Shown here one piece after another: positions 36,057 to 40,771 of a stretch of DNA of 64,000 nucleotides. Position 1 is the first letter of the stretch; each line of letters begins with the position of its first letter. The stretch is from Chitinolyticbacter meiyuanensis. Lineage in GTDB: Bacteria; Pseudomonadota; Gammaproteobacteria; Burkholderiales; Chitinibacteraceae. Made by a program: the position numbers and the translations under genes. The stretch lies in NCBI RefSeq assembly GCF_008033135.1, contig NZ_CP041335.1:1367925-1431924 (forward strand), read 5' to 3'. The notes beneath the pieces are model-generated. The model worked only from the letters and a program-made list of their open reading frames with translations. It was not told the DNA's origin and ran no database searches.

Positions 36057-36830
36057 TCAACGGCGGCGCGAGCGGAAGTAGCTGTGATTCGCGTAAAAGC
36101 TGGCGTCTTGCTGCGGCCACCAGCCCGGGATGCCGAGGTAGGGCAGCGGCGGCAATTGGCGCGGTGTGGTCAGCCAGCCCGCGGAGAGGGATGTGCAAAC
36201 CTGGCTATCCAGCTGTGCCATGCGCGCAGCCAGCGGCAAGGCGAAGAAGGCAGGCTCGACCTGCACCGGCCAGCATTTGCCGGTGAGGCCGGTGAATGGC
36301 GCCAACAGGTTCTCGAAGGTGGCGTGGCCGAATACCAGTGCATCGATATGGCGACCCCAGTCGTCACGGCGGTCGACGAACAGTGTGGACCATTCATGCC
36401 CGACCAGCAGCTCCAGCAGGGCCGGATCGCTGTAGGGCACGATCAGCCCGCATTCGTCGAACAGCGTGGCGGCATCGCGCACCGGCCCACGCGGCCCTTG
36501 GCCGGTATCCGGCAGCAGTCGATAGTGCAACGCATTGAGCGCGGCCTTGCTGCGGGGGTAGCTGTGCCAGACCAGCGCGTTGAAGCAGTCGTGCCAATCA
36601 TCGCGCGTAGCAATGCGGCCCAGCTCGTAGATCTCCGCCTCGTAGTAACGACTGAGGCTGGATGGATCGACGCACTGCAGTGGCAGGCCGGACTGGGTGT
36701 GGACCGGTGGCAGGCGTTGCCAGTCGGCGAGCGCTGGCACGCGTGGCAGCTGCGCCGTGAGCGGCGCGAGCAAAGCAAAGGCCGGATGCGCCAGCGCATC
36801 CGGCCAGTGTTGCCCTGCGATTCCCGGCAT
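36057..36830 (-). CDS. DUF3025-family protein
   Basis: 257 aa. 'WHDCFNALVWHSYPRSKAALNALHY' conserved DUF3025 block. Confidence 0.65.
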   Translation of the reverse strand: MPGIAGQHWPDALAHPAFALLAPLTAQLPRVPALADWQRLPPVHTQSGLPLQCVDPSSLSRYYEAEIYELGRIATRDDWHDCFNALVWHSYPRSKAALNALHYRLLPDTGQGPRGPVRDAATLFDECGLIVPYSDPALLELLVGHEWSTLFVDRRDDWGRHIDALVFGHATFENLLAPFTGLTGKCWPVQVEPAFFALPLAARMAQLDSQVCTSLSAGWLTTPRQLPPLPYLGIPGWWPQQDASFYANHSYFRSRRR

Positions 36831-37307
36831 TTACAGCTTGCCGAGTTCCAGCCGGCCCTCGCCAAGTACCGGGGCGCCAGCGTTGGCGTCATCGAGCGCC
36901 TTTACGGTCAGGAAATAGGCCTTGCCCGGGGTGCAGGGCGGCAGGTAGTTGCCGTCGCCGCCTTGCGGGCCGGAAACCAGCGAAAAGCCACCGGGCAGCT
37001 TGCCCTGCGCCTGCACGCTGGGTACCTGCGCGCTGGCGACGCCCTTGTTCACCGCGAACAGCAGCTTGCCATTGCTGCCTCCGCCGCGCTCGTTGAATTC
37101 CAGCAGGATGGCACCGGTGCCGGGGGGCAGGTCGAACACATTGAGGGCCGGCGTCGAGCCTTGGCCGCCGAGCTTGGCGCATTGCTGGCCGGGTGGCACG
37201 GCCACGCCGTTCCAGGCCGGGTTGGCGAAGCGCACCGTCAGTCTGGGGCCGGCCAGGGCGGGCAGCGCGGTGAGGGCGAGCAGGGCACAGAGCAGAGGGC
37301 GTTTCAT
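36831..37307 (-). CDS. secreted hypothetical protein
   Basis: Signal peptide 'MKRPLLCALLALTALPALA'; Gly-rich beta-type body. Directly abuts the DUF3025 start. Confidence 0.45.
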   Translation of the reverse strand: MKRPLLCALLALTALPALAGPRLTVRFANPAWNGVAVPPGQQCAKLGGQGSTPALNVFDLPPGTGAILLEFNERGGGSNGKLLFAVNKGVASAQVPSVQAQGKLPGGFSLVSGPQGGDGNYLPPCTPGKAYFLTVKALDDANAGAPVLGEGRLELGKL

Positions 37308-37430
37308 GGTCCGTTCATTCCATATGACGACAGGGGCATACCCTTTACGCGAATTGTAACGGATATGCCCCTGCCGTAACGGTGATCGGGTCAACAGCGT
37401 TGACGACTCACCGTGTGAAAACGCACGCGA

Positions 37431-37931
37431 TCAGGAGAGCGCGGCGAGCGCGGTGCCGTAATTCGGCTCGTTCTTGATCTCGGCGACAAGTTCGCTGTGC
37501 AGCACCTTGTCGTTCTCGTCGAGCACCACCACGGCACGAGCAGCCACGCCGGTGAGCGGACCCGAGGCGATATCGACGCCGTAATCGTTCAGAAACTGGC
37601 GACCGCGCATGGTCGACAGCGTCACCACGTTGGCGAGGCCTTCCGCGCCGCAGAAGCGGTTCTGGGCGAACGGCAGGTCGGCCGAGATGCACAGCACCAC
37701 GGTGTTGCTGAGCTGGCTGGCGGCTTCGTTGAAGCGGCGCACCGAGGTGGCGCAGGTGGGGGTGTCGATGCTCGGGAAAATATTCAGTACCTTGCGCTTG
37801 CCAGCAAAGCTGGCAAGGGTGACATCGGCGAGGTCCTTGCCGACCAGGGCGAAGGGTTTGCCGGTGTCGCCGGCCTTGGGGAACTGGCCATTGACCGTGA
37901 CGGCGTTGCCGCCGAGGGTGACTTCAGACAT
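37431..37931 (-). CDS. tpx: thiol peroxidase
   Basis: '[12 protein letters not shown]' peroxidatic cysteine and the resolving Cys in 'NRFCGAEG'. Confidence 0.9.
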
Positions 37932-38021
37932 CGTTTTCTCCAGTGGGCTTGAAACGGGGGTGAACAAAAGGCCCTGCCTCCAGATGGGGGCAAGGCCCAT
38001 GATGACAAGCGGGAATGACGA

Positions 38022-38558
38022 TCAGGCTTCGGTCTCTTCCTCGACCACCGGTTCGGGTGGGAACAGCGCCTGCAGCATCAGGTCGTAAAGCGGTTCGCTG
38101 TTGATGTCCGCAACCAGTTCCGCATAGCGCACGTTGTCGTCGGTATCGAGCGCGATCAGCGCGGTGGCCATCAGTCCGGACAGCGGCACGTCGGTGATCA
38201 TCACGCCGTAGTCCTTGTGGAAATCCCGGCCACGCAGCGTGGAGAGCAGCTGCAGCCGGTGCAACCCTTCCTGTTGCGCCACGCGCGCCAATGCATACGG
38301 CGTATCGACCGACACCACCAGCACCACGGTGTTGTCGAGCTGTGCTGCGACGGCATCAAGCCGCTTGGCGATGGCAAGGCCGATCGCGGCATCGATGCTG
38401 GGCACCACCGCGATCACCTTGCGTCGGCCCCAGAACTTGGAAAGCGGTACGTCCTGCAGTTGCATGTCGACCAGCATGAAGCTGTGCGCGGTTTCGCCGA
38501 CATGCGGGAAACGACCGCCGACGCTGATCGGGGTACCGTTGAGCATCACGGTGGCCAT
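38022..38558 (-). CDS. Tpx-like paralog lacking both catalytic cysteines
   Basis: Colinear with Tpx, but 'VVPSIDAAIGLA' replaces '[10 protein letters not shown]' and 'ARVAQQEG' replaces 'NRFCGAEG'. Start ATG at 38558 inside the longer track ORF. Confidence 0.65.
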   Translation of the reverse strand: MATVMLNGTPISVGGRFPHVGETAHSFMLVDMQLQDVPLSKFWGRRKVIAVVPSIDAAIGLAIAKRLDAVAAQLDNTVVLVVSVDTPYALARVAQQEGLHRLQLLSTLRGRDFHKDYGVMITDVPLSGLMATALIALDTDDNVRYAELVADINSEPLYDLMLQALFPPEPVVEEETEA

Positions 38559-38626
38559 GCTGTGGTCCTCGTTGTCCGGTTGACGTTCCAGTATCGCCAG
38601 CACCCCCGTCGAATACAAGGCGGGGC

Positions 38627-39739
38627 TTACGGGTAGAACCAGTAGATGGTGTAGCCGGTGGACGACAGGTCGCCTACATCGATCTGCAGCATGGCATGCA
38701 GCTCGTCGTTCGAGCCCAGCTCGCCGCGGCCCTTCTCGCTGTTCACGAGGTATTCGGCGGGCGGAAAGCGCTTCTTGGCGACCACTTCCTCGCGGGCATT
38801 GGTCAGCGTCAGCTCCAGTGTCGGCAGTGCCTGGGCATACGGCGCCAGATTGCGCACCGAGGCCGACAGCTGGATCAAGTTGTTGTGATCGGGCAGGTAG
38901 GTCAGCTCGGAATAGTCCGAGCGCAACAGCTCGGCATTGCGTGGCAACGGCATGGCGCAGCCCAGCTGGGCGCAGGCGGCGACCAGTGGCGGACGCAGCC
39001 AGGGGAAATCGGTGGCCAGCTGGTTGCGGAAATAGAGGCCGGCCTGGGCGATCAGGGCCAGGGTCAGCAACAGGCACAGCGGGATGGCCAGCCAGCGCCA
39101 GCGTGATGGCGGCTCGGGGGGCGTGAGCAGCGCCTCGTCTTCCAGCGAGCGGATCGGCCGATACACCGAGTTGAGCGTGAGCGGTGATTCCTTCAGTGCT
39201 GCCTTCAGCGCTTCCTGGTCGCGTGGATCGGCTTTGGGCTTCTCGCTGATCGGCGATGGCACCGGCACCGGTATCGGGGCGGGTACGGCTTCGGTGCGCG
39301 CTTCCTCCTGTTCGCTGGCCGCTTGCGCGGCCACGGCCTTGGCAGCCAGTCGAGCTTTGCGGGCAGCAATCACCATCTCGGCGACGCTGGGCTCCGGTGC
39401 CTGTGCGCCTTCGGCTGGCGCATGGGCTACCGCAGCAGGTTCGTCGGCCACTGGTGGCTCGACAGGTGCCGGCGCGGGTGGGGTGGATGCGATCGGTTCG
39501 GGCAGCGCTATGGGCGGTGCAGGGACAGCGGCAGGCGTCGCAACGGGGGCGGGCGCTGGCTCGACGGCCACCTGCTGCGGGACCGGCTCTGGCTCGGCCA
39601 GCGTTTCCTCCAGGCAGGCGCGGGCGTTGAACACGAAGCTGCACTTGCCGCAACGCACCTTGCCGCCGTGGGCAGCGAGCTGGGACTCGCTCACCTTGAA
39701 GGCGGTCTGGCAGTTGGGGCAGCGCGTCACATGGTTCAT
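38627..39739 (-). CDS. DUF3426-family protein with N-terminal zinc ribbon, Pro/Ala-rich linker, one TM and a C-terminal domain
   Basis: 'MNHVTRCPNCQTAFKV...KVRCGKCSFVFNA' MJ0042-type ribbon, and a C-terminal DUF3426-like domain after the TM 'WLAIPLCLLLTLALIAQAGL'. Confidence 0.65.
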   Translation of the reverse strand: MNHVTRCPNCQTAFKVSESQLAAHGGKVRCGKCSFVFNARACLEETLAEPEPVPQQVAVEPAPAPVATPAAVPAPPIALPEPIASTPPAPAPVEPPVADEPAAVAHAPAEGAQAPEPSVAEMVIAARKARLAAKAVAAQAASEQEEARTEAVPAPIPVPVPSPISEKPKADPRDQEALKAALKESPLTLNSVYRPIRSLEDEALLTPPEPPSRWRWLAIPLCLLLTLALIAQAGLYFRNQLATDFPWLRPPLVAACAQLGCAMPLPRNAELLRSDYSELTYLPDHNNLIQLSASVRNLAPYAQALPTLELTLTNAREEVVAKKRFPPAEYLVNSEKGRGELGSNDELHAMLQIDVGDLSSTGYTIYWFYP

Positions 39740-39808
39740 GGGGCTCGATTGTAGCGGCCTTGCGGGCCAGCGCAATCGTCGCGGCGTAGAAAACGCGTCG
39801 CTGTGGTA

Positions 39809-40696
39809 TCAGCGCTTGCTGCCGGACAGGCAGACCCAGCCTTCCTCGATCACCGGCGGGTTCAAGTCGAACCAGGCGGCGTAGATCGCGGTGACGTCAT
39901 CGGCCTGCTCGGCGAGGATGCCCGAGAGCGCAATGCGTCCACCGGCGCGCACCCGGCTCGCCAGCATCGGTGCCAGTGCCTTCAGCGGGTTGGTGAGGAT
40001 GTTGGCGATCACCACGTCGTATTCGCCCTCAGGCGCCTCATCCGGCAGGAAGAAGGCGATGTCGACGCCATTTTGCTCGGCGTTCTGCCTGCTGGCGATC
40101 ATCGCTTGCGGATCGATGTCGACGCCATGGGTCTGACCGGCGCCGACTTTCTTCGCCGCGATGGCGAGAATGCCGGAGCCGCAGCCGTAGTCGAGTACGG
40201 TCTCGTTCGCCTGGATATGCGCATCCAGCCAGCGCAGGCACAGCCGGGTGGTCGGATGGCTGCCGGTGCCGAAGGCGAGGCCTGGATCGAGCGCAATGTT
40301 GATCGCATCGGCGTCAGGTGCCTCGTGCCAGGTCGGGGTGATCCACAGCCGAGCGGAAATCGGGATGGGATCGAACTGCGACTGGGTCAGCCGTACCCAG
40401 TCCTGATCCTCGACCGACACGGTCTCGAACGCCGGCGGCGCAATGCCAAGCTGATTGGCCGCCGCTGTCACCGTCAGTGCCGGGTCCATCTCGTCGCCCA
40501 GGTGGGCGACCACCACGCTGTGGTCCCACATCTGATCCACGGGTTCGCCCGGCTCGCCGAAGATCGGTTTTTCCTCGTCGGTGCCGGCCGCGGCGTCCTC
40601 GATGCTGACCGACAACGCGCCCAGGTCGAACAATGCGTCGGACAGCGCCTCGGCATGCTTGGAATCGGTGGTAATGCGCAGTTCGGTCCAGGGCAT
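39809..40696 (-). CDS. prmA: ribosomal protein L11 methyltransferase
   Basis: 'MPWTELRITT' N-terminus and 'DYGCGSGILAIAA' SAM motif. Confidence 0.9.
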   Translation of the reverse strand: MPWTELRITTDSKHAEALSDALFDLGALSVSIEDAAAGTDEEKPIFGEPGEPVDQMWDHSVVVAHLGDEMDPALTVTAAANQLGIAPPAFETVSVEDQDWVRLTQSQFDPIPISARLWITPTWHEAPDADAINIALDPGLAFGTGSHPTTRLCLRWLDAHIQANETVLDYGCGSGILAIAAKKVGAGQTHGVDIDPQAMIASRQNAEQNGVDIAFFLPDEAPEGEYDVVIANILTNPLKALAPMLASRVRAGGRIALSGILAEQADDVTAIYAAWFDLNPPVIEEGWVCLSGSKR

Positions 40697-40771
40697 GGCA
40701 ATACTCGAAAACGGGAGGGTAGAAACGCAGAGTGAGGCTTGCGCCTCACTCTGTCACCTGATTGGATGGAC

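Follow-up and report, generated by a model that had tools for sequence, protein, structure and literature searches.

A cysteine-free thiol peroxidase homologue of Chitinibacteraceae is a probable pseudoenzyme under purifying selection

Introduction

Peroxiredoxins are defined by their peroxidatic cysteine (Cp). Redox-inactive thioredoxin-fold proteins, and pseudoenzymes more widely, form a class with which departures from that definition can be compared. Here we describe such a departure, a homologue of thiol peroxidase (Tpx) that contains no cysteine at all, encoded directly upstream of a canonical tpx gene in a 64,000-nucleotide stretch of the Chitinolyticbacter meiyuanensis genome (contig NZ_CP041335.1, positions 1,367,925 to 1,431,924). 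This whole stretch is referred to below as the window, and all coordinates without a locus label are window positions.

The natural comparison is with the atypical 2-Cys Tpx of E. coli and Yersinia (PDB 3HVV, 2XPD). The Yersinia Tpx dimer is held together by bonds from R110 to the carbonyl groups of G125, P126 and A128 and by pairing of D57 with R93 (PMC3288085). In Tpx of S. aureus, the cleft is lined by F6, K7, P10, V52 and P53 together with L34, F87 and R108 of the partner chain, and its base is formed by T57, C60 and R128 (preprint 10.64898/2025.12.11.693838). The Cys-free protein shares with E. coli and Yersinia Tpx its length, 41–48% identity, the residues of the A-type dimer interface, a passing score against the NCBIfam Tpx model, and a modelled fold that includes the N-terminal β-hairpin (template modelling (TM) score 0.9–0.98, root-mean-square deviation (rmsd) 0.8 Å). 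Unlike them, it has no Cp, no resolving cysteine (Cr), no catalytic Thr, no catalytic Arg and no other cysteine, and the segment around Cr is unconstrained. A parallel outside this family is PDILT, a protein disulfide isomerase (PDI) family member without catalytic cysteines that is thought to act by binding (PMC4894388). PDILT likewise keeps an enzyme scaffold after cysteine loss, but it belongs to a different family and has a different domain architecture.

Literature searches for Cys-less or inactive Tpx or peroxiredoxins returned no description of a Cys-free member of the Tpx subfamily. The closest known object is a structural-genomics entry, PDB 3KEB, for which we found no accompanying paper.

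Results

Loss of the catalytic residues in an intact gene

The two genes at the centre of the analysis are as follows.

37431-37931, minus strand: canonical E. coli-like thiol peroxidase TpxA, 166 aa, 247.4 bits to NCBIfam NF001808, with Cp Cys60, Cr Cys94, Thr57 and Arg132
38022-38558, minus strand: Cys-free Tpx homologue, 178 aa, recognised by sequence and motif comparison, the subject of this work

Their products align without a gap over 165 residues at 45% identity (E 5e-51). TpxA carries three cysteines (Cys60, Cys81 and Cys94) and is 76–88% identical to the Tpx of other Chitinibacteraceae and of Rhodocyclales, while the 178-residue product of the upstream gene carries none. A preliminary description of the locus had called the upstream copy colinear with Tpx and devoid of both catalytic cysteines, quoting SIDAAIGLA against SIDTPTCAT and ARVAQQEG against NRFCGAEG. 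The quoted strings are exact, and alignment with Tpx confirms the catalytic positions: Gly60 stands in place of the peroxidatic cysteine and Ala94 in place of the resolving one. Two further losses had been missed, namely that of the catalytic Thr (T57, now Ala57) and that of the catalytic Arg (GVAARAVV, now GLMATALI, which places Thr132 at the Arg position). The Tpx motif P-x-x-x-T-x-x-C thus reads PSIDAAIG in the window protein. Restoration of the active site by cysteines at shifted positions was considered and rejected, as the window protein and most members of its clade have no cysteine anywhere. Judged from its residues, the protein should be unable to serve as a thiol peroxidase, and thioredoxin-dependent reduction of hydroperoxides would be chemically implausible without a cysteine.

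General models of the family nonetheless recognise it. Both proteins pass NF001808 ('thiol peroxidase', cut-off 123), the Cys-free protein with 162.5 bits, and Pfam matches it to Redoxin (54.7 bits) and AhpC-TSA. The Cp, Cr and Arg features fail, and the protein should therefore not be filed as a thiol peroxidase, despite these sequence models.

The reading frame is intact from an ATG start to a TGA stop, a GAGGA ribosome-binding site lies 6 nt 5' of the start, and the G+C content at third codon positions (GC3) is 0.81, against 0.79–0.87 in neighbouring genes. The frame stays open upstream to 39653, giving a 543-codon open reading frame (ORF; 38022-39653, minus strand) that runs across a DUF3426 gene; every homologue begins MAT.., so we take 38558 as the true start. 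The frame extension and the antisense ORFs of the region are artefacts of high G+C (64.5%), not genes. Two such long antisense ORFs lie over real genes, at 36084-37379 and 39803-40735 on the plus strand.

A conserved clade under purifying selection

The window protein is 100% identical to P0001, a member of a sizeable clade. Among the best 120 clusters at 90% identity, 100 carry Gly in place of Cp; in these the Cr position is variable and the Arg position holds Thr, Ser or Ala. These Gly-at-Cp clusters come from Chitinolyticbacter, Chitiniphilus, Deefgea, Andreprevotia, Chitinilyticum, Chitinibacter, Chitinimonas, Iodobacter, Chitinivorax, Formivibrio and many metagenomes. Clade statistics by position, here and below, refer to an alignment of 126 members. 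Gly60 is conserved in 100% of them, Thr57 is replaced by Ala in 69%, and position 132 (R133 in E. coli) is Thr in 91% and Ser in 7%. Position 94 (C95 of E. coli, on helix α2) is unconstrained, its commonest residue reaching 22%, and constraint is lost from the segment around it. The former Cp helix carries a new pattern, D-A-x-I-G-L-x-I-A-R-x-L-E (DAAIGLxIARRLE), that holds throughout the clade and reads as a fixed pattern rather than random decay.

One position varies in another way. Residue 106 (Ser in the window protein, in LLSTLRG, next to interface Arg109) is Cys in 15% of the clade, including Iodobacter and Andreprevotia; such variants would give particular lineages a new thiol at the dimer interface.

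Scanning one genome per species yielded 45 further genomic copies, in Chitinibacteraceae and their allies. With that of the window, all 46 are intact, with no frameshift or stop, and encode 169–194 aa. Across 28 genome pairs, the ratio of nonsynonymous to synonymous substitution rates (dN/dS, Nei-Gojobori method, NG86) is 0.02–0.24 with a median of ~0.08; for the adjacent active Tpx in the same pairs it is 0–0.28, with a median of ~0.07. Mean identity inside the clade is 68% across genera, with blocks conserved at 100%. The suggestion in the preliminary description that an intact frame and native codon use speak against a pseudogene is borne out, and the selection data contradict a pseudogene directly. 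Taken together, the Cys-free gene is very probably a selected pseudoenzyme, that is, a Tpx homologue without catalytic residues that remains intact and under purifying selection.

By eye, the tree of the Cys-free clade broadly mirrors that of the neighbouring Tpx, which suggests vertical inheritance in Chitinibacteraceae. Jeongeupia and Silvimonas keep the active Tpx and lack the Cys-free gene. The preliminary description had held that absence from close relatives would count against it; we find such absence in these two genera only, the gene being intact at all 46 loci elsewhere.

The Cys-free gene is not a copy of its neighbour

The two genes had been described as tandem paralogues, and here the trees disagree. 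The Cys-free clade is monophyletic in 100 of 100 and 300 of 300 neighbour-joining (NJ) bootstraps. It groups with a second type of active Tpx (TpxB), apart from the type represented by the neighbouring tpxA, in 300 of 300, and with the neighbour type in 0 of 300. A recent tandem duplication is rejected, since the clade never joins the adjacent Tpx in these trees.

Sequence similarity follows the same division. The closest active relatives are the TpxB proteins of Thiobacillaceae, Hydrogenophilales, Sulfuricellaceae and Leeia, at 55–60% identity to the Cys-free protein. On average the clade is 55% identical to this type and 43% to the neighbour type, and the two active types are 63% identical to each other. 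The block RGRDFHKDYGVMIxD and the strand HSFMLVD are common to the Cys-free clade and TpxB and are not found in the neighbour type. Their signature positions (DFHKD on helix α3, HSFMLVD on strand β3) are 92–100% conserved in both groups, the shared residues being H25, S26, M28, D31, S40, D112, H114, K115, D116, M120, D123 and S127. TpxB differs from the Cys-free protein in keeping Thr, Cp, Cr and Arg.

Gene neighbourhood and transcription

The Cys-free gene occupies a slot whose other features in the window are these.

36057-36830, minus strand: DUF3025 protein, marking the downstream end of the slot throughout
36831-37307, minus strand: secreted-looking protein of ~158 aa with a signal-like N-terminus (MKRPLLCALLALTALPALAG) and no Pfam match, between tpxA and the DUF3025 gene
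37961-37998, minus strand: terminator-like hairpin GGGCCTTGCC..GGCAGGGCCT (-22 kcal/mol), then TTTGTTCA, in the 90-nt spacer from the stop of the Cys-free gene to the start of tpxA
38627-39739, minus strand: zinc-ribbon and DUF3426 membrane protein (Pfam PF11906, PF13719), 68 nt upstream of the Cys-free gene
39809-40696, minus strand: prmA, encoding ribosomal protein L11 methyltransferase, at the head of the conserved run prmA-DUF3426-(Cys-free tpx)

The DUF3426 gene, whose start was set to ATG (MNHVTRCPNCQ) by ORF inspection, stands next upstream at all loci examined. The protein at 36831-37307 is present at a subset of loci: it is conserved in this position in Chitinolyticbacter, Chitiniphilus, Andreprevotia, Formivibrio and strain HSL-7, and in Jeongeupia the position is taken by a protein of similar size.

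The same slot connects the Cys-free gene to the glycine-cleavage (gcv) operon. In the closest active relatives, gcv genes surround tpx in 35 of 35 loci (L046-L080, e.g. L059:2852-8074). Complete loci of this gcv type, in Thiobacillaceae, Hydrogenophilales, Sulfuricella and related metagenome-assembled genomes, read gcvT-gcvH-gcvPA-tpx-gcvPB, and many lie downstream of prmA-DUF3426. Two species of Leeia have prmA - DUF3426 - gcvH - active tpx - DUF3025, with TpxB next to gcvH and in the DUF3426-DUF3025 slot. The earliest-branching Cys-free loci (Chitinivorax-like; L038, L041, L045) have prmA - DUF3426 - Cys-free tpx - DUF3025. By these gene orders, the Cys-free gene corresponds in position to the active Tpx of Leeia. 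Cys-free copies differ in having no gcv genes nearby: no match to gcvT, gcvH or gcvP was found in the window or within 6 kb in the 45 other loci. The E. coli-like Tpx, for its part, occurs in Rhodocyclales in unrelated gene contexts, and its adjacency to the Cys-free gene is therefore secondary. Going by sequence and gene order, the Cys-free gene is a descendant of the gcv-operon Tpx lineage and not of the adjacent Tpx.

A lone gcvH of 125–126 aa lies between DUF3426 and tpx in the two Leeia species and in Jeongeupia (L081:6457-6834, L087:5473-5853, L083:6485-6862). This is the exact slot of the Cys-free gene in other genera, and no locus has both. Among the best 120 matches to the Jeongeupia GcvH, orthologues above 65% identity come from Jeongeupia alone. 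That an active Tpx is consistently encoded between gcvPA and gcvPB in many Betaproteobacteria suggests a possible functional link with the lipoyl-dependent glycine-cleavage system. A literature search on tpx in gcv operons found nothing relevant; a report on Neisseria gcvT-NGFG_01513-gcvH proved unrelated.

We then consider transcription across the slot. In 41 of 46 loci the Cys-free gene and an active tpx stand side by side in the same orientation, and the remaining 5 have no adjacent Tpx (a statement about adjacency at the locus only). A custom scan for a hairpin followed by a T-run, controlled with shuffled and upstream spacers, found a GC-rich element of this kind between the two genes in 31 of the 41 loci, against 11 of 205 shuffled spacers (5%). 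The median length of this spacer is 131 nt. Upstream, in the spacer that separates DUF3426 from the Cys-free gene (median ~90 nt), a terminator-like element occurs in 7 of 46 loci. The hairpin sequences differ among genera while the feature persists; a standard scan, with its loop limit of 8 nt, misses the hairpin in the window. A standard promoter scan found no sigma-70-like site. Because the terminator-like element is frequent in the downstream spacer and rare in the upstream one, separate transcription of tpx is predicted: the Cys-free gene probably ends the prmA-DUF3426 transcription unit or has its own promoter.

A second Cys-free branch includes PDB 3KEB

In a search of 1.84 billion cluster representatives, the window clade appeared as one representative (P0018), and about 12 of the best 150 representatives at 50% identity lacked the peroxidatic Cys. 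The α3 and β3 signature is kept in four of them (P0388, P0393, P0451 and P0397), and P0393 matches 3KEB, the 'probable thiol peroxidase' of Chromobacterium violaceum, at 2e-66. Over 195 aligned residues 3KEB has no Cys; its Cp site reads SVDEDEHAGLLLLRE, and Pro stands in the place of the Arg. Its identity to the window protein is 39%, with a nearly identical α3 block.

The two forms are alike in lacking Cys in the aligned region, in the Gly aligned at Cp, and in the β3 (PSFMLVD) and α3 (LLSTLRGRDFHK.YGV.IT.YPLSG) blocks. They differ at the former active site, where 3KEB has a 2-residue insertion with acidic and His residues (DEDEHAG), Pro rather than Thr at the Arg site, and Ser for both Thr86 and Tyr88. 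3KEB also has a long charged C-terminal helix. Its branch evolves faster, with at least four representatives at 50% identity against one for the window clade. What is near-invariant across both branches, despite 39% identity, is the α3 block with the loop that follows and the β3 strand, a region that would correspond to the surface between the subunits together with the rim of what was the substrate cleft.

Gene order again agrees. The P0393 and P0388 genes (L088:6001-6648; L089:6001-6564) lie directly after aroQ-accB-accC-prmA-DUF3426, in the same slot as in the window, and neither of these two loci has a Tpx-family gene in the flanks that were read. The P0397 locus shares the downstream gpsA-SecB-Grx boundary. 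3KEB-type proteins and the window clade form one clade in 200 of 200 NJ bootstraps. One ancient loss of the catalytic residues, Leeia having stayed active, would plausibly account for the sequences; two separate losses, or long-branch attraction, may explain them instead. With no cysteine in its aligned residues, 3KEB appears to be misnamed.

Tpx homologues without Cp also occur in unrelated contexts (P0367, P0371, P0379, P0395, P0412, P0474 and P0492, the last at L092:5001-5498), which suggests that such forms arose several times. P0367 (385 aa) is a two-domain Tpx fusion with Gly at Cp in domain 1 and Cys in domain 2.

Could the Cys-free gene be a decaying, functionless relic of the break-up of the glycine-cleavage operon? 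It does derive from a gcv-operon Tpx, the operon itself no longer being present at the locus, and it has been lost in Jeongeupia and Silvimonas. Yet every one of the 46 copies is intact, the dN/dS of ~0.08 equals that of the active neighbour, and clade identity stays at 68% across genera with blocks at 100%. The gene moreover has a ribosome-binding site and native GC3, and a Cys-free relative persists in the same slot in the more diverged branch. We regard a relic as extremely improbable.

Predicted fold, dimer interface and cleft

An AlphaFold2 model of the Cys-free protein, built from an 82-sequence alignment, has a mean predicted local distance difference test score (pLDDT) of 94.9 and includes the Tpx-specific N-terminal β-hairpin (strands at residues 2-6 and 9-14). 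Its best Foldseek matches are reduced, fully folded Tpx structures (TM 0.88–0.98, rmsd 0.8–1.0 Å), whereas oxidised, locally unfolded forms match worse (rmsd ~2.3 Å). As modelled, the protein keeps the Tpx fold in a reduced-like, fully folded state.

The residues of the dimer interface are kept as well. The equivalents of the Yersinia contacts, R109, P125, G128 (at the A128 position), D56 and R92, are 100% conserved in the Cys-free clade; residue 124, equivalent to Yersinia G125, is variable, but its contact is made by the main chain. The clade-specific residues N7, A57, G60, Y88 and T132 align onto cleft sites of S. aureus Tpx, and T86 adjoins one. The C-terminal tail, by comparison, is of low confidence in the model of the window protein. 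Across the clade it is 2–29 aa long, variable in sequence, Pro-rich or acidic, and net negative in 65%; an acidic tail (EEETEA) as a family feature was accordingly rejected.

A conserved interface next to an active paralogue recalls the proposal in the preliminary description that the redox-dead protein is retained as a partner of its neighbour, in which it would heterodimerise with, regulate or assist active Tpx as a regulatory or substrate-presenting subunit. The 41 adjacent, co-oriented pairs fit this proposal, as do core A-type interface residues identical in both proteins (R109/R110, D56/D57, R92/R93 and the P-L-x-G loop), and the natural fusion P0367 makes a pairing of dead and active domains possible in principle. 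The two proteins nevertheless belong to different lineages, are 42–45% identical and are never sisters in 300 bootstraps. On α3, the Cys-free and gcv-type proteins have D112, H114, K115, D116, M120, D123 and S127, where the neighbour type has E, L, a variable residue, A, A, S and A. As these residues differ systematically from those of the adjacent Tpx, a homodimer is favoured over a heterodimer. Five loci of the clade, and both 3KEB-like loci that were read, have a Cys-free gene with no Tpx beside it; Jeongeupia and Silvimonas have the active Tpx alone; the adjacency is secondary, and 31 of 41 pairs have a terminator-like hairpin between the two genes. Retention thus stands, with 46 intact copies, dN/dS of 0.02–0.24 and a conserved fold and interface, but partnership does not follow from it, and we consider it unlikely.

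The remodelled cleft might instead support new, non-thiol catalysis, for which Tyr88, Thr86, Asn7, Asp56, Arg92 and His25 would be the candidate residues. N7, G60, I63, T86, Y88, T122, M130 and T132 are fixed at 91–100%, unlike the outcome of random decay, and several of them bring hydroxyl or amide groups to the cleft. The protein has no recognisable catalytic motif, however, its Pfam and NCBIfam matches being confined to the Redoxin, AhpC-TSA and Tpx models. The 3KEB branch departs at the equivalent sites, with Ser at both 86 and 88, Pro in place of the Arg and acidic residues inserted at Cp, leaving no catalytic constellation common to both branches. A new enzyme is, in our estimate, quite unlikely.

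Chaperone activity in peroxiredoxins is associated with the decamers and high-molecular-weight forms of the Prx1/AhpC class and is not known for dimeric Tpx. A further candidate role is that of an ATP-independent holdase or chaperone, which some peroxiredoxins can fulfil independently of the peroxidatic cysteine. Typical 2-Cys peroxiredoxins, such as Anabaena 2-Cys-Prx, offer a precedent for chaperone activity (PMC4349727). The cleft of the Cys-free protein, which is hydrophobic, would suit such a role, as would its tail, variable, Pro-rich or acidic and modelled with low confidence; the tail, though, is not conserved, and the gene neighbourhood gives no hint of proteostasis. We judge a chaperone very unlikely.

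Discussion

A non-catalytic binding role in general is the most reasonable reading of these data. In the account that we propose, the Cys-free protein would form a homodimer and act through binding rather than catalysis. The candidate surfaces are the inter-subunit surface (SFMLVD on β3 and STLRGRDFHKDYGVMITDxPLSG on α3) and the former alkyl-hydroperoxide cleft. The base of that cleft would now be small and hydrophobic (Ala57, Gly60, Leu61, Ile63 and Thr132), with hydroxyl groups gained at or beside its rim (Thr86, Tyr88) and Asn7 as a clade-specific rim residue. The gene is probably transcribed with or after prmA-DUF3426, apart from the neighbouring tpx. A non-catalytic role of the ancestral enzyme would probably have continued, its catalytic role having been taken over by the adjacent E. 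coli-like Tpx or by other peroxidases. In the window clade the base of the cleft is hydrophobic, in 3KEB it is acidic; the case for a shared small ligand is thereby weakened, and a protein–protein or dimer-dependent role is favoured.

Several points weigh against this account. The cleft bases of the two Cys-free branches differ strongly, and the dimer interface may be the sole feature that they conserve. The α3 signature is also present in active gcv-type Tpx and may reflect ordinary dimer stability. Long-branch attraction in the NJ tree could exaggerate the grouping with 3KEB-type proteins, the clustering of conserved residues was inferred by alignment to published residue lists rather than from coordinates, and the operon structure is a prediction. 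Loss in Jeongeupia and Silvimonas makes the gene dispensable in some lineages. With these points in view, we put forward a homodimeric binding protein as a tentative proposal, and the account as a whole, a pseudo-peroxiredoxin with a non-redox role in homodimeric binding, is held at close to but below even confidence.

A more specific version extends this reading to the ancestry of the gene. The old Cys-free Tpx branch, comprising the Chitinibacteraceae clade and the 3KEB-like form, might have kept a non-redox function inherited from the gcv-operon Tpx, for example that of binding a conserved partner protein, or an amphipathic ligand, in the cleft between the subunits. We consider this doubtful.

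For annotation the consequences are more direct. Where NCBI, UniRef and JGI give names to members of the Cys-free clade (P0001-P0100), these are 'thiol peroxidase' or 'thioredoxin-dependent peroxiredoxin'. By the residues present, peroxidase function is over-predicted for the clade. Since both the clade and 3KEB carry the name of thiol peroxidase, counts of antioxidant genes in these bacteria are overestimated.

A conserved Cys-free peroxiredoxin will be moderately surprising to specialists. Its lineage indicates that the Tpx scaffold is worth keeping for a role other than with peroxide, and offers a clean system in which to find a non-redox activity of Tpx without redox interference. The origin from a gcv-operon Tpx also raises the question of a peroxidase linked to the lipoyl protein GcvH. 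If the non-redox function was indeed inherited, the Tpx fold would have a second, peroxide-independent activity, and the active gcv-embedded Tpx may form an unrecognised peroxidase system coupled to GcvH.

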